From: an uncultured bacterium
GTDB lineage: Bacteria; Patescibacteriota; Andersenbacteria; UBA10190; CAIZMI01
Length of the DNA stretch: 64,000 nt
Reading direction: 5' to 3'
Assembly (NCBI GenBank): GCA_903934015.1
Contig: CAIZMI010000021.1
Coordinates: 10,868 to 74,867, forward strand
Both the position numbers and the translations under genes were made by a program. Position 1 is the first letter of the stretch; the number at the start of each line of letters is the position of its first letter. The notes under the pieces were generated by a model. It had not been told where the DNA came from. It saw nothing but the letters and a program-made list of their open reading frames with translations, and did no database searches. Of this stretch, positions 4,343 to 53,778 are shown one piece after another.

Positions 4343-4906
4343 ATGCCAATAAATTCAATTCGTACCGGAAATTTTATTCGCCCTGACGCGGTATTGCGTG
4401 ATGTTGGTATTAAAGAGGGAATGAAAGTTGTGCATTTGGGTTGTGGTCCGGGGTTTTATGTTATTCCGGCGGCAAAATTTGTCGGTCCATCGGGTAGGGC
4501 AGTGGGTATTGATATTCGCGAACAATCGTTGCAAACATTGCGTCATAAAGCAAAAATGGAAGGATTGGATAATGTTGATGTTATCCGGGGTGACCTAGAA
4601 AAAGAGGGTGGTTCGCATTTGCCTAATGCTTGGGCGGATTTGGTAATAATGGTGAATATCTTGCATCAAAGCGATCCGCGCAAAGTAATGGCGGAGGCAG
4701 TACGCATTCTTCGTCCTGAAGTAGGCCGTCTTTTAACGATAGAATGGGAAGTAACAAATGTTCCCATGGGCCCCCCGGTGGATGATCGTATTACACCTGA
4801 TACAATTCTAGCGGCGGCTAAAAGTAATAACCTTGTCGTGTTGCGTCGTTTTAAGCCAAGTTCTTATCATTTTTCTTTTCTTTTTGCTCGCGCGATTGCG
4901 GGATGA
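4343..4906 (+). CDS. class I SAM-dependent methyltransferase
   Basis: A glycine-rich SAM-binding motif (VVHLGCGPGFY) is followed by an acidic motif (VGIDI) and a Methyltransf_11-like layout. The start was moved to the ATG at 4343, in frame with the ORF-track start at 4220; the upstream part overlaps repeat DNA. Confidence 0.65.
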   Translation: MPINSIRTGNFIRPDAVLRDVGIKEGMKVVHLGCGPGFYVIPAAKFVGPSGRAVGIDIREQSLQTLRHKAKMEGLDNVDVIRGDLEKEGGSHLPNAWADLVIMVNILHQSDPRKVMAEAVRILRPEVGRLLTIEWEVTNVPMGPPVDDRITPDTILAAAKSNNLVVLRRFKPSSYHFSFLFARAIAG

Positions 4907-6288
4907 AAACTATGTTTACGAAATTTCTAAAAAATATAAAAAAAGAGGCGGTAATTAGGGTACGACCTCTTAGAGGTCGGACCCTAAGCGGTTCATTTGC
5001 TAAGCTCGGTCTATTACTTGGCGTCGTCGCTCTCTTTGGTGCCGGTTGCGGAAAAACAAACGCCCCTCCTGCTTCCAAAACACCGATTTCTATTTGGGGT
5101 ATCTTTGATGACGCCGAGGGAATGGATCCGTTTCTTAAAACATTTTCCAACACTGAACTTCCTGGAGCAAAGGTAAGTTATCGCAAACAAAGTCCTGTGG
5201 ATCAATATGAAAATCAGTTACTAAGTGCTATCGCGGAAAATCGGGGGCCGGATGTTTTTCTTATTCATAGTTCTTGGTTACCGCGCTGGAAGAATCGTAT
5301 TTTACCGGCACCGGTGGCTATTATGAATGAGAAGCAAGTTAATGAGCAATATGTTGATTTGGTTTCCAAAGATGTTATTGCAAGTGGTCGTGTGATGGCA
5401 CTTCCGCTTTTTATGGATACATTGGCGCTTTATTACAACAAAGATATTTTTAATGCTTCGGGTGTTACTCGCGCCCCAAAAACGTGGGCGGAAGTAATGG
5501 AAATAGTGAAGCGTACGACAAAAAGTAATATGACGGAAACGAATCAAATCGATCAAAGCGGTATCGCGATGGGAACAGGGCAAAATGTAAATCGCGCTTC
5601 TGATTTATTGTCGATTTTAATGATGCAAAATGGCGTAGCGATGTTGGATGGTGATGGTAATCCCGGTTTTGGCGATAGTGCCGATGCGGTGAGGGCATTG
5701 CAGTTCTATACCGATTTTGCCAATCCCACCAAAGATGTTTACGCGTGGAATACGCGTAGCGACTATTCCATTGACGCGTTTGCGACTAATAAATCAGCAA
5801 TGATGATTAATTATTCTTATCACATGGCTACAATCAAGGCGAAAAATCCGCGTCTCAATTTTGCCATTGCGCCGTTGCCACAGGTGGAAAATTGTCCAAC
5901 TTGTAAGCCGGTAACTTATGGCGGTTATTGGTTGTTGGCTGTTTCCAAACAAACAATCAGTCCTGATACGGCTTGGCGCTTTGTGAAGTTTATGAGTAAT
6001 ACGGCTGCGAATCGTGATTATCTTCAAAAAACCGGTTATCCACCGGCCAGAAAAGATTTGATACAAGAATTGCAAAACGATCCGAGGATCGGTGTTTATA
6101 CTGTGCAAGCCTTAAACGCCGAATCATGGAAGCAAGTTGATAGTCGCTTGGTTGATCGTTTATTCTCGGAGGCAATTGATGAAGTTGTAACAGGAAAGGA
6201 CACTGCGGATGGGGCGTTAAGAAGGGCTTCTCAGCAGTTAAAGGCGGCAACAGAAACAATGAAAGCGCAGGGGAATACGACTAATTAA
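4903..6288 (+). CDS. extracellular solute-binding lipoprotein (ABC transporter substrate-binding protein, family 1-like)
   Basis: A lipobox (LFGAGC) follows a long N-terminal leader. Size and composition fit SBP_bac_1-type sugar-binding proteins. No permease or ATPase genes are adjacent. Confidence 0.6.
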   Translation: MKTMFTKFLKNIKKEAVIRVRPLRGRTLSGSFAKLGLLLGVVALFGAGCGKTNAPPASKTPISIWGIFDDAEGMDPFLKTFSNTELPGAKVSYRKQSPVDQYENQLLSAIAENRGPDVFLIHSSWLPRWKNRILPAPVAIMNEKQVNEQYVDLVSKDVIASGRVMALPLFMDTLALYYNKDIFNASGVTRAPKTWAEVMEIVKRTTKSNMTETNQIDQSGIAMGTGQNVNRASDLLSILMMQNGVAMLDGDGNPGFGDSADAVRALQFYTDFANPTKDVYAWNTRSDYSIDAFATNKSAMMINYSYHMATIKAKNPRLNFAIAPLPQVENCPTCKPVTYGGYWLLAVSKQTISPDTAWRFVKFMSNTAANRDYLQKTGYPPARKDLIQELQNDPRIGVYTVQALNAESWKQVDSRLVDRLFSEAIDEVVTGKDTADGALRRASQQLKAATETMKAQGNTTN

Positions 6289-43244: not shown

Positions 43245-44117
43245 GTGACAAACAACGACATAAACATAGTAAATTTTGCCAACAAGGCGCCAAATTTTGC
43301 CAAGTTAGCAAATCAAACACAAGAAAAGGAAAATGTTAAAGGATCTTTCCCAGTGCCTTCCGAGCGGTTTTTATCAATGACGGCGCATGAGATGCAGGTA
43401 CCAATCACTTCTCTTTCGTGGAATATGGAAAGACTGGTTAAAGTGTTGGGAGAAGATGCGGTAAAACCTGATGTGGCAAAAATTTTAAAACGAATAAGCG
43501 AGGCGGATACGCGCCTGGTTACTTTAGTGGAAGATTTGTTGAATGTTGCCAAGATGCAAGAAGGTGCATTCTTAGTTGCAAAACGTCCGATGCAGTTAGT
43601 GGAAGTGGTGAGAAGGGCATTGCGTACCAATGAGCGCGAGGCCTTGAAACGGGGAGTCGTGGTAAAATGGTCGGCAGATTCGGCGCAGATTCCTTTGACA
43701 ATTGGTGATCCGGAAAGGATCTATCAAGTGACCGTGAATATTTTGAGTAATGCGGTGAAATACACGCCTCGCGGTGGAACAGTAACAGTTACCGTAAGGA
43801 AAACGCAGGAGATTGCGCCCGCGACTGTTGCGCATGGTATTCCTGATAATAAAATAAAAGCCGATTATGTTATGTGCAGTGTTGAGGATACCGGTATCGG
43901 CATTGCTAAAGATGAACAACAAAATATTTTTACGCAGTTTTTTCGCGGTCAAAAAGCGGTGGCAACCGATGAGAGCGGGACTGGACTGGGACTATTTTTA
44001 GTAAAAAGAATTATTGAACAGCACGACGGCGCAATTTGGTTTTCATCACGTGAAGGGTATGGGTCGACATTTTTCTATACTCTGCCCGTAATGGATCCAT
44101 ATGAAGATAATAAATAA
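43245..44117 (+). CDS. sensor histidine kinase (HisKA plus HATPase_c, no TM helices)
   Basis: The H-box MTAHEMQVPITSL and N/G boxes (ILSNAVKYTPRGG; DTGIGI; GTGLGL) are present. Confidence 0.8.
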   Translation: MTNNDINIVNFANKAPNFAKLANQTQEKENVKGSFPVPSERFLSMTAHEMQVPITSLSWNMERLVKVLGEDAVKPDVAKILKRISEADTRLVTLVEDLLNVAKMQEGAFLVAKRPMQLVEVVRRALRTNEREALKRGVVVKWSADSAQIPLTIGDPERIYQVTVNILSNAVKYTPRGGTVTVTVRKTQEIAPATVAHGIPDNKIKADYVMCSVEDTGIGIAKDEQQNIFTQFFRGQKAVATDESGTGLGLFLVKRIIEQHDGAIWFSSREGYGSTFFYTLPVMDPYEDNK

Positions 44118-44119
44118 CA

Positions 44120-44506
44120 ATGTCAAAAATTCTGATAGTTGAAAGCGAACAAGCGTTACTTTCCACGTTGTGTGAAGAGTTGGAGGAACGTGGTTTTGAT
44201 GTGGATCCGGCCACCAATGGCGGGGAGGCGTTGCGTAAGTTGCATGTTCGTCCGGATGTGATTGTTTTGGACGGTATTTTGACTGATATAGACGGGTTGA
44301 CTTTACTCGCCCAGATTAAAAGCGACCAAGACTTAAAGAATGTGCCGATAGTATTTTTGCTGGAATCCGGTGACGAATCGAAGGCACACGCCGCCGCAGA
44401 GCTGGGAGTTTCCAAAAGTATTATCAAGACAAGTTATGGTTTGGGTGGTTTGTGTGATTTGATCGAAAAATATTTACCGCAGAAGAAAAAGATTCGGTAC
44501 GTTTAG
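44120..44506 (+). CDS. response regulator receiver protein (stand-alone REC)
   Basis: REC motifs are ILIVESE...DVIVLDGILTDIDG...KSI. Confidence 0.7.
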   Translation: MSKILIVESEQALLSTLCEELEERGFDVDPATNGGEALRKLHVRPDVIVLDGILTDIDGLTLLAQIKSDQDLKNVPIVFLLESGDESKAHAAAELGVSKSIIKTSYGLGGLCDLIEKYLPQKKKIRYV

Positions 44507-44572
44507 GGTGAATTTTATTGTCTTTCTAATTTGCGATTTGACGTGTACAATACGATGTAGTAGAGTAGTCGT

Positions 44573-45151
44573 ATGTTTATAAAAGACATCGCAGAAGTTC
44601 AAGCCGGATTTGCTTTCCGTGAAGCCATTGTACCGAATCGTGAAGGAAATATTTGCGTTTTTCAGGCCAAGGATCTAGTTCAGGGGGTGCCTTTTACTAA
44701 TACTGCTTCTTTGATAAAAGTTTCCCTAGAATTGCCGGAATATGTTGGCCATCTTAGAAAAAATGACGTTCTTTTGGTTGCGCGGGGCATGAAAGCCGGA
44801 ACATTTCGTTCAACGGTCTTCAATACTGACGAAGTCAACGTGATTGCTTCTTCCTCTGTGCACATTATTCGCATTACCGCTAACGACGTTATTCCCGAAT
44901 ATGTTTCGCACTACTTGAATTGCAAGGATGGCCAGAATGCTATTTCGGAAATCTTATCCGGGGCGCATATTGGGGTAATACCGCGGAAAGAGTTGGAAAA
45001 TATGAAAATCCCGATACCGGTTATTGGTAAACAGAAATCAATAGTTAACTTAATGAATAATATGCGCGAGCAACAGCGAATAGTGGAAAAAAGAAACGCC
45101 TTGAAACAAGAAATTATCGATGGAACTTTTAGAAATCTAACCACCAAATAA
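44573..45151 (+). CDS. hsdS: type I restriction-modification specificity subunit, half-size (single target-recognition domain)
   Basis: One TRD is followed by a conserved C-terminal helical repeat (KQKSIVNLMNNMREQQRIVEKRNALKQEIID). At 192 aa it is about half a canonical HsdS. Confidence 0.7.
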   Translation: MFIKDIAEVQAGFAFREAIVPNREGNICVFQAKDLVQGVPFTNTASLIKVSLELPEYVGHLRKNDVLLVARGMKAGTFRSTVFNTDEVNVIASSSVHIIRITANDVIPEYVSHYLNCKDGQNAISEILSGAHIGVIPRKELENMKIPIPVIGKQKSIVNLMNNMREQQRIVEKRNALKQEIIDGTFRNLTTK

Positions 45152-45156
45152 AAATT

Positions 45157-46671
45157 ATGACTAATCCAACAAAATTCAATCAAGAAGATCTTAATAAAAC
45201 GCTCTGGGCGGCGGCGGACTCTTCGCGTAGTCAGTTGGCAGCGGAGGTATACAAAGATTATGTATTACCGATGTTGTTTTTGAAATACATCAGTGATTTA
45301 AACAAGAAACGGCGCGCCGAATATAAAGAACGTTTTGGCGCCGATGAAAAACGTATTGATGAAAAAATGAAACTGGATCGCTTTTATTTGCCGCCAAAAT
45401 CTTCGTTTGATTACATTTACGGCAAAATTGAGGAAGATAATATCGGAGAAGAAATTAACAAGGTTCTTGATCGCATTGAGGAAGCAAATAAAGAGAAACT
45501 CGACGGCGTATTCAGTGTTGATTTCAACTCGGAATCCGTTTTGGGAAAAATTGATCAACGCAACAAAATGTTGCGCCATCTAATTCAGGACTTTGCAAAA
45601 ATCGATTTGGCGGACGTTGGTGATGATATTATCGGCAATTCGTATATGTATATGATCGAGCGTTTTGGCGCCGATGCTGGTAAGAAGGCGGGCGAATTTT
45701 TTACCATGAGATCGGTAGCAAAACTGGTGGCAATGTTGGCCGAACCGCAAAAGGGCGACAGGATTGCGGACCCGGCCTGCGGATCAGGTGGCCTGCTTTT
45801 ATTGGCCGGTGAAGAAGTGGAGAAAAAAGGATCCAAGAATTACGCGCTTTATGGGCAGGAATCAACAGGCTCCACGTATCAGCTAGCACGGATCAATATG
45901 TTTCTTCATGGCAAGGATTCGGCGCGACTTGAATGGGGTGACACGCTGAATAATCCATTACTTGTGGAAAACGACCAATTGATGCATTTCGACGTGGTTG
46001 TTGCCAACCCGCCATTTTCCTTGAAAAAATGGGGTGCTGAACATGCAGGAGAAGATAAGTACAATCGCTTTTGGCGTGGTGTTCCTCCCAAGGATAAAGG
46101 TGATTACGCGTTTGTTACCCATATGGTGGAAACCGCCAAACCAAAAACCGGGCGCGTGGCGGTGATCGTACCGCACGGTGTTTTGTTTCGCGGGGGCGCG
46201 GAAGGTAGTATTCGCGAGCAATTTTTGAAGGAAAATATCATTGATACGGTGATTGGGCTTCCGGCGGGGCTGTTTCAAACAACGGGTATTCCGGTGGCGA
46301 TTCTGGTGATTGATCGGTCGCGCGAAAAGGGCGGAGCCAATGAAAACAAAAAAGATGTATTGTTTATCGAGGCCTCAAAAGAATTTAAGCCAGCGAAAGC
46401 CAAAAATATCTTAACCGAGGAAAACATTACGAAAATATTTGATACCTATAAACAACGTAAAAACGTCAAAAAGTTTTCCCGCAAAGTAAATTTTAAGGAA
46501 ATCGAAGAAAACGATTTCAATTTAAATATCACTCGCTACGTTGATACGTTTGAAGAAGAAGAGCCGATTGATATTAAGGCAAATCTAAAAGAATTGGAAA
46601 AGCTTGAACCGGAATTGAAAAAACTGGAAAAACAAATGGTGGAGTATTTAAAGGAATTGGGAATTAATTAA
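45157..46671 (+). CDS. hsdM: type I restriction-modification DNA methyltransferase subunit M (N6-adenine)
   Basis: An HsdM N-terminal domain, the SAM-binding motif DPACGSGGLL and the catalytic motif VVANPPFS are present. Confidence 0.9.
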   Translation: MTNPTKFNQEDLNKTLWAAADSSRSQLAAEVYKDYVLPMLFLKYISDLNKKRRAEYKERFGADEKRIDEKMKLDRFYLPPKSSFDYIYGKIEEDNIGEEINKVLDRIEEANKEKLDGVFSVDFNSESVLGKIDQRNKMLRHLIQDFAKIDLADVGDDIIGNSYMYMIERFGADAGKKAGEFFTMRSVAKLVAMLAEPQKGDRIADPACGSGGLLLLAGEEVEKKGSKNYALYGQESTGSTYQLARINMFLHGKDSARLEWGDTLNNPLLVENDQLMHFDVVVANPPFSLKKWGAEHAGEDKYNRFWRGVPPKDKGDYAFVTHMVETAKPKTGRVAVIVPHGVLFRGGAEGSIREQFLKENIIDTVIGLPAGLFQTTGIPVAILVIDRSREKGGANENKKDVLFIEASKEFKPAKAKNILTEENITKIFDTYKQRKNVKKFSRKVNFKEIEENDFNLNITRYVDTFEEEEPIDIKANLKELEKLEPELKKLEKQMVEYLKELGIN

Positions 46672-46763
46672 AAGTAGTTTTATGGAAATAATTTTTACGC
46701 GATCAACATCAAATAATACTTTGTATGAGGTTCTTGAAAAATTGAAGCTGTTAAAATCGGTAT

Positions 46764-47963
46764 ATGAAAGCTAAGCAGGTAAAAAAAAATGGTTGTGATG
46801 GATGGTTGATAATAAAACTTGGTGATCTTGCTGTGATTAGTCGTGGTGGATCTCCTCGACCCATAGAGTCTTATATAACTGATGATAAAAATGGTCTTAA
46901 TTGGCTTAGGATTGGTGATATAAAACTGGGTGCTAAATATGTATATGGGACTAGTCAAAAAATAAAAAAAGAAGGACTATCAAAAACGACTCTGGTTGAG
47001 AGTGGTGACTTCATTCTCTCCAATTCAATGAGCTTTGGTCGTCCTTACATTATGAAAATAAGTGCATGCATTCATGATGGTTGGCTTGCACTTAGAAAGA
47101 TTAAAACTGATCTGGTTAGCAAGGAGTTTTTGTACTATTTATTATCGTCAAAAAAGATTCAGAACGATTTTGTGTCTATTTCTGCTGGGTCAGGTGTTCA
47201 GAATTTAAAAAAAGATACAGTGTCTACTGTTGCAGTAAAAATACCATTGGTTGATGAGCAGAACAGCATTGTCGCCGTCTTGGAAACATGGGATGAAGCG
47301 ATTGAAAAACTAACTAAAAAAATTGAAATTAAGAAGGCAATTAAAAAAGGATTGATGCAGGAATTGCTTAAGGGAAAAACTCGGTTGTCTGGGTTTAAGG
47401 ATAAATGGGAAGTTAAAAAACTAGGGGATGTGTGTGATATTGGCACTGGGAGTAAAAACAATCAAGATAAAATCAGCAATGGGGTTTATCCTTTTTATGT
47501 AAGGTCTCCTATTATCGAGCGAATTAACTCATATTCGTACGATGGAGAAGCAATACTAATTCCAGGGGAAGGAAATATTGGGAAAATATTTCATTATATA
47601 AATGGCAGATTTGATTTTCATCAGCGTGTGTATAAAATTAGTGACTTTAAATTAAACGTACTTGGTAAGTATCTCTATTACTATTTGGTTAAGCACTTTT
47701 CGAAAGCAACAAAATCAGATTCAGTTAAGGCGACAGTTGATTCTTTGCGTTTGCCCACCTTCACTAAATTTCAGGTTCAAATTCCAGCCTTAGCGGAACA
47801 AAAAGCAATTGTCGAAATTCTTGATGTTGCAAATGAGGAAGTAAAAAAATTACAAAAACAACTCACAATCCTTAAAGATCAAAAAAAGTTTCTGCTGAAC
47901 AATCTAATCACGGGCGCGATTCGCACGCCTGAAAAATTTAGCATTAAAACAACAAAGCGATGA
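46764..47963 (+). CDS. hsdS: type I restriction-modification specificity subunit S (two target-recognition domains)
   Basis: Two TRDs are separated and followed by conserved coiled-coil repeats (SIVAVLETWDEAIEKL...; KAIVEILDVANEEVKKLQKQL). Confidence 0.85.
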   Translation: MKAKQVKKNGCDGWLIIKLGDLAVISRGGSPRPIESYITDDKNGLNWLRIGDIKLGAKYVYGTSQKIKKEGLSKTTLVESGDFILSNSMSFGRPYIMKISACIHDGWLALRKIKTDLVSKEFLYYLLSSKKIQNDFVSISAGSGVQNLKKDTVSTVAVKIPLVDEQNSIVAVLETWDEAIEKLTKKIEIKKAIKKGLMQELLKGKTRLSGFKDKWEVKKLGDVCDIGTGSKNNQDKISNGVYPFYVRSPIIERINSYSYDGEAILIPGEGNIGKIFHYINGRFDFHQRVYKISDFKLNVLGKYLYYYLVKHFSKATKSDSVKATVDSLRLPTFTKFQVQIPALAEQKAIVEILDVANEEVKKLQKQLTILKDQKKFLLNNLITGAIRTPEKFSIKTTKR

Positions 47964-48796
47964 ACAAAAAACAAGTGGACAGCACAAAGATCACCATTTT
48001 CGAGGAAAAAGAAGTGCGTCGAGTTTGGCACAACGAACAGTGGTATTTTGTTATTACCGACGTAATTCAGATTCTTACGGACTCCATTAATGCGAGTGAT
48101 TATCTTAAAAAGATGAGAATTCGTGATGAAGAGCTTTCCAAAGGGTGGGGACAAATTGTCACCCCCCTTCAGATTGAAACAAAAGGAGGAAAACAGACGA
48201 TAAATTGTGCCGATACTGAAGGGATTTTTCGCATTATTCAGTCAATTTCTTCTCCCAAGGCGGAGCCGTTCAAACGTTGGCTGGCCAGGGTAGGAAAAGA
48301 GCGCATCGAAGAAATTGCCGATCCTGAACTGGCTGTCACAAGGGCGAAGGAAATTTATGACAAGAAGGGTTATCCAAAGGATTGGGTTGATAAGCGAATA
48401 CGCGGTATTGCCGTTAGAAATACGTTAACTGATGAGTGGAAGCAAAGAGGTGTAATAAAGGGTCTTGAGTTTGCGATCTTAACCGATGAAATATATAAAG
48501 CAACTTTTGAAAAAACCGCCAAAGAATACATGGAACATAAGGGGCTTGATAAAAAAGCGGGTGATAATTTGCGCGATCATATGGGTGATATCGAATTGAT
48601 TTTAACAATGCTGGGTGAGGCGACGACGACAAAAGTCACGACGGAGAAAGATTCCAAGGGCTTGGAAGCGTTAAAAAAGGATGCGCAGGTTGGTGGTGGT
48701 ATCGCGGGACGAACGCGGAAAGACATTGAAGAAAAAACGGGAAAGAAAGTGGTATCAAGCGATAATTTTAAAAATTTGAAGCTTTTAAAGAAATGA
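47960..48796 (+). CDS. Bro-N/DinD-like (DNA-damage-inducible protein D family) protein embedded in the RM operon
   Basis: The N-terminus (FEEKEVRRVWHNEQWYFVITDVIQILT) resembles the Bro-N/KilA-N fold of DinD. Translational coupling on both sides is consistent with its membership in the hsd operon. Confidence 0.5.
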   Translation: MNKKQVDSTKITIFEEKEVRRVWHNEQWYFVITDVIQILTDSINASDYLKKMRIRDEELSKGWGQIVTPLQIETKGGKQTINCADTEGIFRIIQSISSPKAEPFKRWLARVGKERIEEIADPELAVTRAKEIYDKKGYPKDWVDKRIRGIAVRNTLTDEWKQRGVIKGLEFAILTDEIYKATFEKTAKEYMEHKGLDKKAGDNLRDHMGDIELILTMLGEATTTKVTTEKDSKGLEALKKDAQVGGGIAGRTRKDIEEKTGKKVVSSDNFKNLKLLKK

Positions 48797-51700
48797 AAAT
48801 ACAGCAAAACGAAAATACCACATTAGGCAACGAATCTTATAGACCATTGCTAAAAGAAGTAAATTTTGACGAAGCGAAACAGTCACAGCTCCCGGCGATT
48901 GAAATGCTTTTGGCAATGGGTTACGAATATGTTTCTGTCGATGAGGCACTTCGGCAACGCGGGGGAGATATCGGCAATTTTATTCTCTCCAATGTCGCAA
49001 AAGAGAAATTGATGGAAATTAACGGGTACGAGGTGAACGGCGTGAAATATAAATTCAGCGAAAAAGATGTACAGGACGCGATTGATGAACTGGAGCATAT
49101 TCAATACGAAGGTCTAATCGATACGGCGCAGAAAATATACAACGTAATTATGCCGACGAGCGGTGGAAAAACGATCAAGGTTAGTATTGGCGGAAAAACC
49201 GTTTCCAAGAATTTTCGCTTTATCGATTTTGAAAATTTGGCAAACAATGTTTTTCACGTATCTGCGGAATTTGTCGCGTCCGGCAAACAAAATATTCGTC
49301 CTGATGTTGTTTGTTTTGTAAACGGTATTCCGTTTGCCGTAATCGAGAATAAAAAATCGAGTGTGAATGTTTCGGAAGCGATCAATCAAATGAATCGAAA
49401 TCAGGGGCCGGAATTTTGTCCGAAGCTTTTTACCTTCACGCAACTTTTAGTGGGGACAAATGGCAAAGAACTGGAATACGGGACAACGGGCACGCCGAAC
49501 AAATTTTATGTGGTCTGGAAAGAGAAGGGGATGGCGTTGGATAAAATTGATGCAAAATTGGCGACTTTGATCGCAAAGAAAATTAAGCCGGATATTTATG
49601 CGCAGATATTAACCGATTTGAATGGTTATACCAACGGGCACACACAGCGAACTGATCGCTTGCCAACCGAGCAGGACAGAGGAATTTTTGCGCTTTTTGA
49701 ACCAAAAAGACTTTTAGATTTGGCAAAAAATTATGTTTTGTTTGACGCGGGAATTAAAAAACTTTCTCGTTATCAGCAATATTTTGCGATTAATAAAATA
49801 TTAAATAGAATCAGGGAAGAAGAAACGATGCCAAATGGTACATCGAGACGCCGTGGTGGTTTGGTGTGGCACACGCAAGGATCCGGCAAGTCTTTAACGA
49901 TGGTGATGTTTGTCAAAGCGCTGATTGAAAATCAGGGGATAATTAATCCGCGAATTATCATTGTCACGGATCGGCGGGATTTGGATCGGCAGATTAAGGG
50001 AACTTTTAAGAATTGCAATTTAAAGAAAGAAGTAATTCAGGCGAAAAGTGGTCAGCATTTGTTGGAATTGATAAAAGAAAAAAACCTCGCGGTTATTACG
50101 ACAGTAATCGATAAGTTTGAGTCTGTGGCAAATAAGAACAAGAAGACATGTTTTGTTGATGCTGATAAAAATATCTTTGTGTTGGTTGACGAAGCGCATC
50201 GAAGTCAAAGCGGGATTGCCAATTTGGAGATGAATCGGATTATTCCGAACGCTTGTTATATCGGTTTTACCGGCACGCCGTTGATGAAAAAAGACCGTGA
50301 AAGCTGGAAAAAATTCGGCGGATACATTGATCAATACACGATTGACGACGCGTTGGCGGATAAAATTATTTTGCCGTTAATCTATGAGGGAAGATATGTC
50401 ACGATGGTGCAGAACGCGGAGCAGATTGATCGTCACGCCGAATATATCTCGGAGGATATTGTTAAGAAATTTGATACGAGTGCCGATTCAAAATTTCGAA
50501 CGCTACAGAAGCAAATTACGGCGGATGTTATCAAAAATAATCCTCAAAGAATCGAGGAAATTGCGCGTGATATAGAGAAACACTATTCCGAACATTTTAA
50601 AAATACCGGACTGAAAGCGCAAATTGTGGCCCCGTCCAAATTTTCGGCCATCAAATTTCAAAAGTTCTTCCAAGATCGTGGTAATTTATGCACGGCGGTG
50701 GTGATTTCTGATGAACATGATGATGGTGATGAAGAGGACACGCACAAGAAAGAAGTCGTTAATTATCTTGATACTGTTCGCAAAAAATACAGCAGTGTCG
50801 CCAAGTACGAGAAAGATGTGATTGATAGTTTTAAGTACAACGAGGATGGCATTGAGATTATTATTGTTGTTGATAAGTTGCTTACCGGCTTTGACGCGCC
50901 ACGCAACACCGTGCTTTACCTTGCAAAAGACCTGCGCGATCATAACTTGCTTCAGGCAATCGCCCGCGTGAATCGTTTGCATGAAAACAAGAAACGTCCC
51001 AAGACTGCCGGGTACATAATTGATTATTCGGAAAATGCCAAAAATATCGATACGGCGATGAAGTTGTTTGGCAATTACGATGAAAAAGATGTTAAAGGAA
51101 CGCTGATTGATGTTAAAGAGAAAGTACAGGAACTCGAGGAAGGTTATAGTCTTTTGCACGATATTTTTAAGGGGGTTGAAAGTACGACAGATGATGAAGC
51201 CTTTTTACGTTTTCTGGATGATGCGCCAAAACGAGAGATGTTTTATAAAGCGCTTAACGCGTTTATTAAGAATCTTAATGAATGTTTTGTGCTTCAGGAT
51301 TTTGTGCATGAATTTAAATATCTTGATATTTATACGCGGGAACTAAAAAAGTTTATGGAACTGCGTAAATCGGCCAGTCTAAAATATGCCGACCGCATTG
51401 ATTTGTCTGAATACAAGCAGGCACTGGTTAATATTTTGGACAAATACGTTGACGCTGAAGGTGTTGAACTTTTAACGAAGCAAATCAATATCACCGATCG
51501 TAAGCAATTTGAACAAGCGGTTGAAACATTGGGATCCGATAAATCAAAGGCGGAAGCCATTGCCGCGCAAACACAAAGAACGATTACGGAAAAAATGGAT
51601 TCGGATCCGGAATTCTATGACCGATTTTCCAAGAAAATTAGAGAAATCCTGCAGAAGATGTATGACGGAAAGATGGCGGATATTATCGCACTTAAACAGA

Positions 51701-52068
51701 TGAAACTTATCGAAGACGATGTTGTTGCAAAAAAAGACGCGAGTTTGCCGAAACCTATTGTCGCGGAAAAAGGTTCGGACGTATTCTTTCGCAATCTGCA
51801 TGGCTCATTTAATAAATTTAATTTGGAAGAGGAAGTTTATATCAGCTTGGTATTGGATATATTCCATATTGTAAAAGAAGAAGCAATTATCGACTGGCAC
51901 AATAATCTGGACGTAAAACGGCGCATGATTGGCGCAATTGATGATTTTCTTTATGACGTTGTTAAGCGGGAGCGGGGTGTTGACTTATCGGACGAGGACA
52001 TGAAAGCAATTATCGCGTCGGTAATGGCGCTTGCGGAGAACAATAATGGAATCTTTGTCGAATCTTAA
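48793..52068 (+). CDS. hsdR: type I restriction enzyme R subunit (HsdR)
   Basis: It has an N-terminal PD-(D/E)xK nuclease region and an SF2 helicase with motif I (GSGKSLT) and motif II (VLVDEAHRSQ). Length is 1091 aa. Confidence 0.9.
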   Translation: MKIQQNENTTLGNESYRPLLKEVNFDEAKQSQLPAIEMLLAMGYEYVSVDEALRQRGGDIGNFILSNVAKEKLMEINGYEVNGVKYKFSEKDVQDAIDELEHIQYEGLIDTAQKIYNVIMPTSGGKTIKVSIGGKTVSKNFRFIDFENLANNVFHVSAEFVASGKQNIRPDVVCFVNGIPFAVIENKKSSVNVSEAINQMNRNQGPEFCPKLFTFTQLLVGTNGKELEYGTTGTPNKFYVVWKEKGMALDKIDAKLATLIAKKIKPDIYAQILTDLNGYTNGHTQRTDRLPTEQDRGIFALFEPKRLLDLAKNYVLFDAGIKKLSRYQQYFAINKILNRIREEETMPNGTSRRRGGLVWHTQGSGKSLTMVMFVKALIENQGIINPRIIIVTDRRDLDRQIKGTFKNCNLKKEVIQAKSGQHLLELIKEKNLAVITTVIDKFESVANKNKKTCFVDADKNIFVLVDEAHRSQSGIANLEMNRIIPNACYIGFTGTPLMKKDRESWKKFGGYIDQYTIDDALADKIILPLIYEGRYVTMVQNAEQIDRHAEYISEDIVKKFDTSADSKFRTLQKQITADVIKNNPQRIEEIARDIEKHYSEHFKNTGLKAQIVAPSKFSAIKFQKFFQDRGNLCTAVVISDEHDDGDEEDTHKKEVVNYLDTVRKKYSSVAKYEKDVIDSFKYNEDGIEIIIVVDKLLTGFDAPRNTVLYLAKDLRDHNLLQAIARVNRLHENKKRPKTAGYIIDYSENAKNIDTAMKLFGNYDEKDVKGTLIDVKEKVQELEEGYSLLHDIFKGVESTTDDEAFLRFLDDAPKREMFYKALNAFIKNLNECFVLQDFVHEFKYLDIYTRELKKFMELRKSASLKYADRIDLSEYKQALVNILDKYVDAEGVELLTKQINITDRKQFEQAVETLGSDKSKAEAIAAQTQRTITEKMDSDPEFYDRFSKKIREILQKMYDGKMADIIALKQMKLIEDDVVAKKDASLPKPIVAEKGSDVFFRNLHGSFNKFNLEEEVYISLVLDIFHIVKEEAIIDWHNNLDVKRRMIGAIDDFLYDVVKRERGVDLSDEDMKAIIASVMALAENNNGIFVES

Positions 52069-52768
52069 TCGCAAATTCGTTTTTGGGTCATTTGAATATT
52101 GCTATGACTTGATTAAACAGGAACGAAAGACTTTGAGTCTTACGGTTACACCGAATTTACAGATTTTTTTGAAAAGTCCCAATCAAGCCGATAATAATCG
52201 CATTGATAAATTCCTGAAAAAGAAATGGTTCTGGCTTGAGAAACAGTTGGCGTATTTCCGAAAATTTCAGCGAAAACAATACAAAAAAGAATATGTTTCG
52301 GGTGAGAGCTTGTTTTATTTGGGGAAGCAATATCGTCTTCAAGTAAAACGAGGAAAAAATGAAAAAGTGTCTTTGTTGCGCGGATGCTTGTTAGTCATAA
52401 CGAAGAATTCGGTTTCTGACGGAGTGCACACAAAAAAATTAGTTACTAAATGGTTTGATGAGAAAACAAATAAAATTTTTAACGAGCGTTTTGAGGCAGT
52501 AAAAACATTGTTTGCTTATGATGAAATGCCAAAACTGGTTGTGAGAGATATGAAACGGCGGTGGGGAAGTTATAAAGATAATCATATAATCGGTCTCAAC
52601 CCCAAATTAATTCGTGTTCCAAAAGAGTGTATTGATTACGTCATCGCGCACGAAATGTGTCACGTGAAACATCGCGATCACGGAAAAGAATTTTATCGAT
52701 TATTAGAAAAAAAATATCCAAAATGGGAAAAAATTAAGGACAAGCTAGAGGAATTCGGGGTAAAGTAG
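52031..52768 (+). CDS. YgjP/DUF45-family metal-dependent hydrolase (M48-like HExxH peptidase fold), an hsdR-associated gene
   Basis: The C-terminal motif VIAHEMCHVKHRDHGKEFY matches the DUF45 zinc-binding motif. The family is characteristically linked to type I hsdR genes. Confidence 0.7.
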   Translation: MRRTIMESLSNLNRKFVFGSFEYCYDLIKQERKTLSLTVTPNLQIFLKSPNQADNNRIDKFLKKKWFWLEKQLAYFRKFQRKQYKKEYVSGESLFYLGKQYRLQVKRGKNEKVSLLRGCLLVITKNSVSDGVHTKKLVTKWFDEKTNKIFNERFEAVKTLFAYDEMPKLVVRDMKRRWGSYKDNHIIGLNPKLIRVPKECIDYVIAHEMCHVKHRDHGKEFYRLLEKKYPKWEKIKDKLEEFGVK

Positions 52769-52810
52769 TTTTTTGTGTTGCTCTCGCGCTACAAATAAAA
52801 AACACACACC

Positions 52811-53102
52811 AAAGGTAGCTCCGAAAAATTAGCCTGTTGGCAAATTTTTTGGAGTTCTTCGGTTCTTGTGCAAAACGACTCAACAGGACGTTGAGTCGTT
52901 TTGTGTACATTGTATGGTTTCGCTTAGCGAAACAAATCTCGAGTGCGCTCGGAGGGACTCGGCTTCGCCTCGGCTAGCCACCGGTAAGCGGTTCCGTTTC
53001 GACGGAACATCGCTTACCGTTCTCGTCCCTCTCGCAACACAAGCAGTTGTGTTGCTCTCGCGCTACATAAACAAACCGCACCAAAGTGCAGTTTGTTTAT
53101 TG
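52811..53102. other. E2: hairpin-rich conserved element immediately 3' of tRNA-Arg(TCT), homologous to E1
   Basis: It shares the 5' three-hairpin module (with covariation) and the core ctcgcaacacaagcagttgtgttgc with 15638..16079. It contains a 20-nt direct copy (tgcgctcggagggactcg) and an inverted T-arm-like copy of the adjacent tRNA 3' end. Confidence 0.5.
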
Positions 53103-53176
53103 TGCGCTCGGAGGGACTCGAACCCCCAACCTAGAGGTTAGAAACCTCTTGCTCTGTCCGGTTGAGCTACGAGCGC
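53103..53176 (-). tRNA. tRNA-Arg (anticodon TCT)
   Basis: The reverse complement GCGCTCGTAGCTCAACCGGACAGAGCAAGAGGTTTCTAACCTCTAGGTTGGGGGTTCGAGTCCCTCCGAGCGCA folds as a cloverleaf with anticodon loop TTTCTAA. Confidence 0.85.
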
Positions 53177-53384
53177 TTAAGCACAAATACTACTTTAAAC
53201 AAAGCATATTTTCAAGACACACAAGCTTGATTATTAAAGGAATTTGGAATAGTATTGCGATATTGGATTTTTAATTTCCAATAATAATTTGGTGGCTATG
53301 GTTCAAAAGCAGAACGTCCGGTTGTGGTCCGGGAGACGAGGGGGCGGTACCCTCTAGCCACCCATAGTGGAATTAATAAAGTGA

Positions 53385-53461
53385 GCCCCTGTAGCTCAGC
53401 TGGATAGAGCGCCTGGCTTCGGACCAGGAGGTCGTGGGTTCGAATCCTGCCGGGGGCACCA
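53385..53461 (+). tRNA. tRNA-Arg (anticodon TCG), with encoded CCA
   Basis: GCCCCTGTAGCTCAGCTGGATAGAGCGCCTGGCTTCGGACCAGGAGGTCGTGGGTTCGAATCCTGCCGGGGGCACCA has anticodon loop CTTCGGA. The T-stem contains two G-U pairs. Confidence 0.8.
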
Positions 53462-53778
53462 AGTAATATAAAACAGTCCCCTGGGACTGTTTTATATTAC
53501 TTCTAGAAGTACGGCAGGATTCGAAGGGAATGTAAAATAATTGAACTGCTTCAATTATTTTACATTCCCCGGCTTTCCCTACTACAAAATTCCTTCGAGC
53601 GAAGCGAGCGGAATTTTGTAGTAGGGAAAGGAGTCCTGCCGGAGACAAGCCACCTGCGTGTGTCGTGTGCGGATTCGAACGGCAATCGTTGTTTCGTTAG
53701 TAACGAAACCGATTGTCGGTGGCCAGAAAATTTTGTATCAACAAAAGTTTCGAGGCCGAATCCTGCCGGGGGCACCAA
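53462..53778 (+). other. E3: hairpin-rich element 3' of tRNA-Arg(TCG), ending in a 21-nt direct repeat of the tRNA 3' end
   Basis: A terminator-like hairpin lies at 53464..53500. Further in are an inverted T-arm copy (cggcaggattcgaa), two perfect 17-19 bp hairpins, and gaatcctgccgggggcacca repeated at 53757..53778. Confidence 0.5.

Follow-up and report, generated by a model that had tools for sequence, protein, structure and literature searches.

Short cassettes that copy the 3' end of the tRNA gene in front of them form a previously undescribed, widespread structured family, which is bound to tRNA 3' ends both physically and by sequence. We describe them here from a stretch of 64,000 nt of contig CAIZMI010000021.1 (assembly GCA_903934015.1), which belongs to an uncultured patescibacterium of the Andersenbacteria. 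This whole stretch is called the window in the following, and coordinates refer to it unless a locus is named. In the window, such trailers follow the genes for tRNA-Leu(TAG) (trailer E1), tRNA-Arg(TCT) (E2) and tRNA-Arg(TCG) (E3). The family combines a fold supported by covariation, linkage to tRNA genes, segments that are matched to the neighboring tRNA, and a polymorphism of zero, one or two copies that is bounded by the 3'-end repeat. On balance, we consider it probable that the cassettes are structured mimics of the "top half" of tRNA, acting probably at the RNA level, and that recombination at the repeated tRNA end adds and removes them.

The original prediction for this locus had placed repeats of the tRNA 3' ends behind both Arg tRNA genes. 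A repeat finder recovered both, one being an exact direct repeat of 19 nt (52943-52961 = 53102-53120) and the other an exact direct repeat of 22 nt (53441-53462 = 53757-53778), together with a third copy of the tRNA-Arg(TCG) 3' end at 53631-53647 (82%). They had been thought to exceed chance expectation, and indeed neither long repeat was matched in 100 shuffles of the window, even with up to three mismatches allowed. The inverted T-arm copies are likewise present. The one at 53512-53525 complements 53439-53452 over 14 nt without a mismatch, and GTTCTCGTCCCTC (53019-53031) complements the T-loop and T-stem of tRNA-Arg(TCT) imperfectly. The hairpins of E3 are perfect, with 20, 20 and 21 bp (inverted repeats I2, I3 and I1). 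Three details of the earlier description had to be revised. The two Arg genes, described as convergent, are in fact divergent and stand back to back, because by ARAGORN and Rfam coordinates tRNA-Arg(TCT) lies on the minus strand at 53102-53176 and tRNA-Arg(TCG) on the plus strand at 53385-53461. They are also not the only tRNA genes of the locus, since Rfam places a His-like gene, the fourth tRNA of the window, between them. Finally, E3 had been taken as one segment of about 300 bp; its ~316 bp consist of two units, E3a (53510-53647) and E3b (53637-53778). The flanking tRNA genes score 70.4, 67.1 and 44.8 bits against the Rfam tRNA family RF00005, all above the gathering threshold of 29 bits, and neither Rfam nor ARAGORN calls a tRNA in the cassettes. 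No plausible open reading frame (ORF) is contained in the bounded segments of 159-316 bp.

Read in the sense of the tRNA, E1, E2 and E3 share one order of parts: a complement of the T-loop and the 3' strand of the T-stem, hairpins, a motif pair, and the copy of the tRNA 3' end. The motif pair, GGTGGCYAG .. CGARGCCGARTC, precedes the copy of the T-stem and acceptor 3' strands, and its two members co-occur at just three places in the 64 kb, namely in E1, E2 and E3. That the trailers and E1 are of one design had been proposed before, and the same layout is indeed found behind all three tRNA transcription units of the window. We refer to units of this kind as R1. They are ~125-160 nt long and comprise, in tRNA sense, an optional anti-acceptor, a hairpin A (with a ..AACUGCUU.. 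loop), an anti-T segment, a conserved core of ~95 nt and a tail. The anti-T is the reverse complement of tRNA positions 53-65, and the tail copies the neighboring tRNA from T-loop position ~57 to N73/C74.

To describe the family, a covariance model (R1) was built from 23 units. Its members were collected by pattern scans, nhmmer and this model. In a first step, one genome per species was scanned with a pattern, which yielded at least ~25 clear relatives and also ~95 chance matches in high-GC genomes. A stricter pattern was used on metagenomes, where high-GC coding regions matched too, and both scans were filtered by nhmmer and the covariance model. In total, the family comprises at least 106-111 units in at least 98 loci. 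The named hosts are essentially all Patescibacteria, with record labels in the genome scan that include Magasanikbacteria, Yanofskybacteria, Saccharibacteria, Gribaldobacteria, Paceibacteria, Nomurabacteria, Uhrbacteria and "Patescibacteria group". The organism of the window itself falls into the Parcubacteria group by its RecG homologues. Six metagenome-assembled genomes with R1 units (loci L006, L031, L042, L050, L058 and L078) are labelled 'uncultured Gammaproteobacteria'. These labels are probably wrong, because L050 is orthologous to the Patescibacteria locus L092: both have the same tRNA-Val/tRNA-Leu arrangement, and their tRNA-Leu genes differ by one base pair.

We compared the cassettes with existing collections. 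Rfam 15 contains no family for the window cassettes, either at gathering score or at E <= 1-10, and returned just chance microRNA-type matches over the hairpins; the best-scoring family member, L092, matched nothing in Rfam. R1 units were seen neither in viral contigs (pattern scan) nor in phage or plasmid records (blastn). Clustering of the flanking ORFs of 24 loci revealed no protein common to the neighborhoods and no linked recombinase. In full-text literature searches the cassette family was not described; the nearest match, group I introns in the anticodon loops of Patescibacteria tRNAs, is unrelated. On inspection, we also rejected box C/D or H/ACA guide RNAs (there are no boxes), group I/II introns (the units are too small and lack the domains), retrons (there is no reverse transcriptase), CRISPR-like or TIGR arrays, and T-boxes, in which case the tail would have to be complementary and not identical to the tRNA end.

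The linkage to tRNA genes is tight. For 83 of the 106 units a tRNA gene lies on the same strand within 500 nt upstream, mostly less than 65 nt from the unit start, while the remaining units stand at a contig edge (13/106) or are orphans (10/106). Hence, ~90% of the judgeable copies are located directly downstream of, and co-oriented with, a tRNA gene, and at least 30 tRNA species are involved. The tail equals the adjacent tRNA exactly over at least 16 nt in ~60 of the 83 linked units. This match always starts in the T-loop, at position ~57-59; it ends at N73/C74 in ~40 units, and in ~20 it runs on into the trailer or terminator, by 1 nt up to more than 50 nt. Between L050 and L092 the tail tracks the single base-pair change in the acceptor stem, whereas the rest of both units has diverged. 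The anti-T is the Watson-Crick complement of the tail and not a copy of the tRNA 5' strand, as judged in a crude T-stem register analysis from 7 informative sites against 1 (informative sites being non-Watson-Crick positions; 11 more sites were uninformative, and E3a is among the cases). An anti-acceptor in the correct place is found in only ~1/4 of the units, by an acceptor register analysis that is likewise crude. Similarity of the cores is uncorrelated with tRNA species (median 0.596 vs 0.592, p = 0.35), and orthology by tRNA type was rejected.

Two further observations concern the tails. Many tRNA genes at the family loci have no encoded CCA yet carry a C at position 74, and the identity between tRNA and tail often stops right after that C. 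An origin from mature tRNA (a retro route) was not convincing, as tails with an encoded CCA beside CCA-less tRNAs were found in just ~4 of ~25 cases. The orphan R1 units (10 loci, L219, L058, L217 and L083 among them) possess a tRNA-like tail, for example the Ser-like ..CUCUCCGCCA. There is no tRNA gene within several hundred bases of these units, and their usual site is behind the terminator of a protein-coding gene.

Structure prediction with RNAalifold on the 23 units yielded hairpin A and a three-way junction, in which a T-stem-like closing helix of anti-T and tail is joined by two arms, P1 and P2. The closing helix has 7 bp and is made by the anti-T and the T-stem strand of the tail; P1 and P2 contain GA-rich internal loops, and in ~1/4 of the units the anti-acceptor also makes an acceptor-like stem. 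As modeled, a unit with an anti-acceptor is a tRNA "top half" that has the core in place of the T-loop. Compensatory changes were found in 31 of the 39 pairs. Among 99 distinct sequences, 95.9% of the cells are paired, double changes occur in 33 of 39 pairs, and the covariation score is 0.514, compared to 0.146 for column shuffles and ~0.05 for slid partners; this alignment is fitted to the model, which flatters the numbers, but the margin is still very large. Compensatory changes well above controls are what is generically expected of a structured non-coding RNA. Covariation also links column 69 to position 59 of the tail, a variable T-loop position (UA 37, AU 28, CG 22, GC 6), and the helix is therefore built on the tRNA-derived tail. 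Furthermore, G.U pairs outnumber A.C (84 vs 44, or 179 G.U with the invariant U.G pair at the P2 base included), which argues that the tRNA-sense strand occurs single-stranded, most simply as RNA. The most conserved positions are unpaired (GAAC, GGA/GA, AG and CGA), and tandem sheared G.A pairs are possible there. In the P1 internal loop, 5'-GGA/3'-AG, inspection of the alignment likewise indicates that tandem G.A pairs are possible; on this reading the loop may resemble a kink-turn, with a bulge of 1 nt in place of the 3 nt of a kink-turn.

The plan of E3a is that of R1, with an anti-T, two long hairpins and a tail. Its first hairpin has the hairpin-A loop (AACUGCUU), and its second hairpin carries an apical GAGCGAAGCGAG motif that is found also at the P2 tip of R1 units. 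In the E3a orthologues of the related loci L245, L248 and L250 the stem sequences are wholly different and fully compensated, and the loops are conserved. E3a is a lineage-specific variant of the R1-type architecture. E1b, the second unit behind tRNA-Leu(TAG), is a simplified unit similar to E3a.

Relatives with 67-91% RecG identity retain the Arg(TCT)/His/Arg(TCG) cluster. The 159-bp E2 unit is present in 0, 1 or 2 copies among relatives, with breakpoints exactly at the tRNA 3'-end repeat. The same-species strains L001 and L003 match the window and have one E2 unit; the same-species strains L002 and L004 have two tandem 159-bp blocks, each made of terminator, unit and tail. These organisms are known from metagenomes, in which assembly errors at repeats are possible, and the one-copy and two-copy forms were each seen in two independent assemblies. 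Clean empty sites were found in L250/L251, L248 and L245, where the 3' end of tRNA-Arg(TCT) is directly joined to TCGAGA.. and the hairpin/terminator module that follows E2 in the window. A comparison of orthologous loci had been proposed as the way to tell inserted trailers from ordinary intergenic sequence, and the empty sites together with the tandem doubles of L002/L004 favor an insertion boundary. For E1, a homologue search with its 265-aa neighbor, made for a comparison of presence and absence, gave just two short matches.

Variation is not confined to E2. L248 has two tandem copies of E3a and no R1 unit, L250 has one E3a, and the window and L245 have E3a plus E3b. A complete R1 unit follows the trailer module in L247, at the place where the window holds a truncated start (52773-52807); this distal remnant of the window is cut by a type I restriction-modification (R-M) island that L248 and L250 lack. 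Identical tandem units also occur in L173 and L244. Units at different tRNAs of one contig are 52-71% identical over their whole length, and only tandem copies are identical. In L152, an operon on the minus strand as oriented (~4577-5045) reads Arg(TCG)-unit-Lys(CTT)-unit. Its units are nearly alike in the core (up to 80% identity), whereas hairpin A, anti-T and tails are tRNA-specific, a pattern that suggests core exchange or homogenisation within the genome. A mirror-image arrangement is found in L245. At 774-989 on its minus strand, hairpin A and an R1 core are joined to a partial tRNA-Arg(TCT) copy that covers positions 1-53 and includes the native promoter region. The fusion point is the boundary of T-stem and T-loop, and the complete tRNA lies 45 nt downstream. 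A hidden Markov model search with the tRNA 5' half identified this as the single mirror-image fusion among the loci examined.

The same data bear on a different reading, in which the units are miniature integrative cassettes that act at the DNA level. Such a cassette would be excised as a small circle and would re-enter at the T-loop and 3' end of a tRNA gene by means of a recombinase supplied in trans. The anti-T/tail helix and the core would then be a folded single-stranded site, comparable to attC in integrons or attP in CTX phage, and the tRNA copies would be attL and attR. Empty and filled sites that break precisely at the repeat, the abrupt stop of identity where the tRNA ends, the native trailer carried along in the tails at ~20 loci and the mirror form of L245, with a duplicated tRNA 5' part as from a Campbell-type crossover, are all better explained in this way than by an RNA-level mimic. 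Tandem arrays with a tail at the end of each unit fit as well, as do the start of identity in the T-loop beside the T-arm-like conserved GRGCCGAAUCC and the fact that several cassette types (R1, E3a, and the trailer module T in L248) end in a tRNA 3' copy. We nevertheless judge integrative cassettes to be rather unlikely. The 24 loci contain no recombinase or other common protein beside the units, and no phage or plasmid copies were found. Near-identical copies are only tandem, and none were seen at different tRNAs within a genome. Since the anti-T is internal and tRNA-specific, a moved unit would not fit its new tRNA. Three features look RNA-like, namely the surplus of G.U over A.C pairs, the invariant U.G pair and the conserved GA-rich internal loops, and the integron core sites RYYYAAC/GTTRRRY were unmatched on inspection of the alignment. 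The footprint of site-specific integration with attL and attR, which had been suggested for this locus, is thus upheld in one respect: a direct repeat bounds an insert, and relatives have empty sites. A conventional integrase-borne element is not what it encloses, as there is no ORF and no linked recombinase, and a conserved covarying family at ~30 tRNA species in many Patescibacteria lineages was found in its place.

Under the interpretation that we favor, a structured RNA-level mimic of the tRNA top half, the unit would be co-transcribed with its tRNA and the fold would act as RNA made from the tRNA transcript. The tRNA-processing machinery would probably free the unit as a stable tRNA-like RNA, and the freed RNA would present the conserved junction core to a binding factor. 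The tRNA 3' end would recombine with its copy, or slippage would occur between the two, by which units would be duplicated and deleted and the tail kept equal to the tRNA. That the fold works as RNA is suggested by units that lie within tRNA operons, such as Arg-unit-Lys-unit (L152) and Ser-unit-Ser (L021), and by the 52 of 82 units with no terminator-like hairpin between tRNA and unit in a crude terminator scan. The role of the cassettes could be useful to the host or selfish.

Several points weigh against this interpretation. We infer transcription, processing and any function in trans, and transcription from position only, namely from the tRNA operons. The same crude scan found a terminator-like hairpin between tRNA and unit in 30 of 82 cases, including all three window loci, which would limit co-transcription of the two. 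The excess of G.U pairs is just ~2:1 outside the one invariant pair and was measured on the model-fitted alignment. E3a and E1b have long perfect stems with 205 Watson-Crick and 6 G.U pairs, which a DNA palindrome would fit too. The family was ascertained through its conserved core, as units were retrieved by sequence pattern. Slippage explains a change from one copy to two or to none but cannot make the first copy at a new tRNA, so that the ~30 tRNA species, the orphan units and the mirror form of L245 need a further mechanism. More tentatively, the units may constitute a protein-less class of element or RNA, a tRNA-templated top-half-mimic module with a conserved junction core that spreads in arrays across the Patescibacteria. 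Such a class could be selfish, exploiting the universally conserved T-loop and 3' end together with the tRNA-processing or recombination machinery, or it could be the RNA subunit of a tRNA-specific ribonucleoprotein.

The inverted copy might also act in cis. In a precursor, it would pair with the T-arm and acceptor 3' strand of the upstream tRNA and control folding, processing or termination, with the tail as a decoy. The anti segment is able to pair with two identical sense copies, and in E1 the predicted ensemble gives 7.0 expected pairs on the tRNA 3' half, and a single long hairpin there unites the 3' end of the tRNA with the terminator and the anti-acceptor. For the anti segments of E2 and E3, the preferred partner is predicted to be the tail of the same unit (5.6 vs 1.4 and 8.9 vs 1.2 expected pairs, respectively). 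Sequestration of the tRNA 3' half by the inverted copy, as originally envisaged for the precursor, is therefore predicted in silico for E1 only. Moreover, covariation supports the anti-T/tail helix, simple sequestration has no need of a conserved 95-nt core, orphan units exist without a tRNA, and only ~17% of the other tRNAs in unit-bearing loci also have a unit. A cis-acting precursor element is, in our view, improbable.

The 3' ends of tRNA genes are classical att sites, and the region is rich in terminator-like hairpins. The trailers might hence be decayed att scars of integrated elements or prophages, or ordinary intergenic terminator hairpins that are alike by chance. We regard such an origin as highly improbable. 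The repeats exceed chance by far, the interior belongs to a covarying, conserved family that spans many lineages and many tRNAs, and integrase remnants were found neither in the bounded segments nor in the flanks of the 24 loci. The shuffles, the breadth of the family and the covariation thus led us to exclude scars and chance.

The coordinates of the tRNA genes, cassettes and trailers are collected in Table 1.

Table 1. Positions of tRNA genes, cassette units and trailer parts in the window.
Feature	Position	Strand	Evidence or remark
tRNA-Arg(TCT)	53102-53176	-	ARAGORN; Rfam tRNA 70.4 bits; last 19 nt (53102-53120) recur at 52943-52961 (repeat D4)
Terminator-like hairpin directly after tRNA-Arg(TCT)	53069-53098	-	Inverted repeat I4; within the 159-bp repeat unit, duplicated along with the unit in L002
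E2, R1-type cassette	52940-53063	-	Covariance model R1 101.2 bits, E 1e-25
E2 partial anti-acceptor	53056-53066	-
E2 hairpin A	53034-53055	-
E2 anti-T	53019-53031	-
E2 P1	52983-53018	-
E2 P2 (without apical hairpin)	52959-52982	-
E2 tail	52943-52960	-
Module T, native trailer	52814-52939	-	Alignment A3; adjoins the tRNA directly in relatives without E2
Module T small hairpin	52917-52933	-
Module T terminator-like hairpin	52871-52903	-
Module T further hairpin	52814-52857	-
Truncated start of second, distal R1 unit	52773-52807	-	86% repeat of 53047-53081 (D1)
tRNA-His(GTG)-like	53292-53362	+	Rfam tRNA 44.8 bits; missed by ARAGORN; 22 nt upstream of tRNA-Arg(TCG)
tRNA-Arg(TCG), CCA encoded	53385-53461	+	ARAGORN and Rfam; 3' end 53441-53462 recurs at 53757-53778
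Terminator-like hairpin after tRNA-Arg(TCG), perfect 20 bp	53461-53502	+	Inverted repeat I2
E3a, variant cassette	53510-53647	+	Repeat finder; orthologues in L245, L248, L250
E3a anti-T	53512-53525	+
E3a hairpin 1 (CUGC loop)	53526-53569	+
E3a hairpin 2 (loop UUCGAGCGAAGCGAG)	53573-53630	+
E3a degenerate tail	53631-53647	+	82% copy
E3b, R1-type cassette	53637-53778	+	Covariance model R1 89.4 bits, E 2e-22
E3b degenerate hairpin A	53645-53667	+
E3b anti-T	53669-53680	+
E3b P1	53681-53717	+
E3b P2	53718-53759	+
E3b exact tail	53758-53778	+
tRNA-Leu(TAG)	16079-16160		Followed by E1a
E1a, R1-type cassette after tRNA-Leu(TAG)	15889-16044	-	Covariance model R1 121.7 bits
E1b, degenerate unit following E1a	~15760-15870	-

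Some features of the surroundings deserve mention. The tRNA-His(GTG)-like gene has a non-canonical T-loop, GGCGGUA vs UUCGAAU, and is kept in the relatives L245, L248 and L250. Its 5' acceptor strand GGUGGCUA coincides with the conserved GGUGGCUAG of the cassette core, which may be due to chance. Module T consists of a small hairpin, A(A/T)TGTACAC, a terminator-like hairpin and GAAGAACUCC..hairpin..GGAGCUACC. A homologue follows E1 at ~15636-15760 on the minus strand, and this trailer module is therefore common to tRNA-Arg(TCT) and tRNA-Leu; it is duplicated in tandem in L245, and in L248 it ends with another tRNA 3'-end copy. The distal R1 unit is cut off at the end of a YgjP-like gene of the type I R-M island. 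This island (~44000-52768) encodes HsdS, HsdM, HsdS, Bro-N, HsdR and the YgjP-like protein, and lies between a response-regulator gene and the tRNA cluster; L248 and L250 do not have it. Past E1, at 15500-15600, the window contains the short GC-rich hairpins ATTCCCGTAACAACGGGAAT, CCACGTTACAACAAAACACGTGG and CCCCCGAAGAATCGGGGG.

Genomes of Patescibacteria are tiny (~1 Mb). About 1 kb of the 64-kb window consists of cassette units, and at least one unit stands behind every tRNA transcription unit there. A conserved structured nucleic acid that is matched base for base to the neighboring tRNA has no described counterpart. The cassettes point either to a new layer of tRNA biology, be it processing, quality control, decoys or a tRNA-specific ribonucleoprotein, in a major and little-understood bacterial radiation, or to a new type of minimal mobile cassette that is anchored on tRNA ends. 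In practical terms, the units are unannotated and create assembly-sensitive repeats at tRNA loci. The covariance model R1 is ready for the annotation of genomes of the candidate phyla radiation (CPR), and the polymorphism of 0, 1 or 2 copies provides a strain marker.

Several known systems share features with the cassettes. Integrative elements with attL/attR sites (phages, integrative and conjugative elements, genomic islands) are likewise bounded by a repeat that runs from the T-loop to the 3' end and leaves the tRNA intact, and they too show empty sites in relatives and tandem arrays. The cassettes differ from them in being 125-200 bp of DNA without integrase or ORF at ~30 tRNA species, and in having a conserved, structured interior with an internal segment complementary to the repeat. 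Integron attC cassettes also form arrays of units at one anchor, have an imperfect inverted-repeat end in which fold and not sequence is conserved, and are recognized strand-specifically. However, the R''/R' sites are unmatched in our cassettes, whose unit ends, ..(U/G)(C/A)GAAC and CGARGCCGA(A/G)UC, show only a partial GAAC likeness. The cassettes are gene-less, contain invariant GA-rich loops and are anchored at whichever tRNA adjoins, and no IntI/attI context was found in the 64-kb window and the short loci. Repetitive extragenic palindromes and their mosaic elements (REP/BIME) and palindromes similar to miniature inverted-repeat transposable elements are also small, hairpin-rich, multi-copy and intergenic, and occur at gene 3' ends. 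In contrast to these, the cassettes lack terminal inverted repeats with a target duplication of fixed length, the duplication being 17-70 nt and always the tRNA end; near-identical dispersed copies are absent, and the cassettes are strictly linked to tRNAs and contain segments that match them.

At the RNA level, functional tRNA trailers and spacers, such as the 3' external transcribed spacer of E. coli leuZ (3'ETS-leuZ), a sponge of small RNAs, and tRNA scaffolds are comparable in that a non-coding RNA arises from the 3' external spacer of a tRNA, as would be the case for the cassettes. These known trailers are short and unstructured, or lineage-specific, unlike the cassettes, and none of them is known to have a conserved junction core or to carry a copy templated on the 3' end of its tRNA. 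Closer in shape are the tRNA-like non-coding RNAs, namely the YrlA/Y RNA domain, the tmRNA domain, viral 3' structures and mascRNA. An Rfam match to YrlA (E = 3.4) lay over the tRNA itself and is noise, and the cassettes differ from this group in having no Rfam match and in being multi-copy with variable copy number. With these RNAs the cassettes share mimicry of the acceptor/T-arm top half and, plausibly, a dependence on tRNA-processing enzymes, but each cassette copies its adjoining tRNA base for base and has a three-way junction in place of the T-loop.

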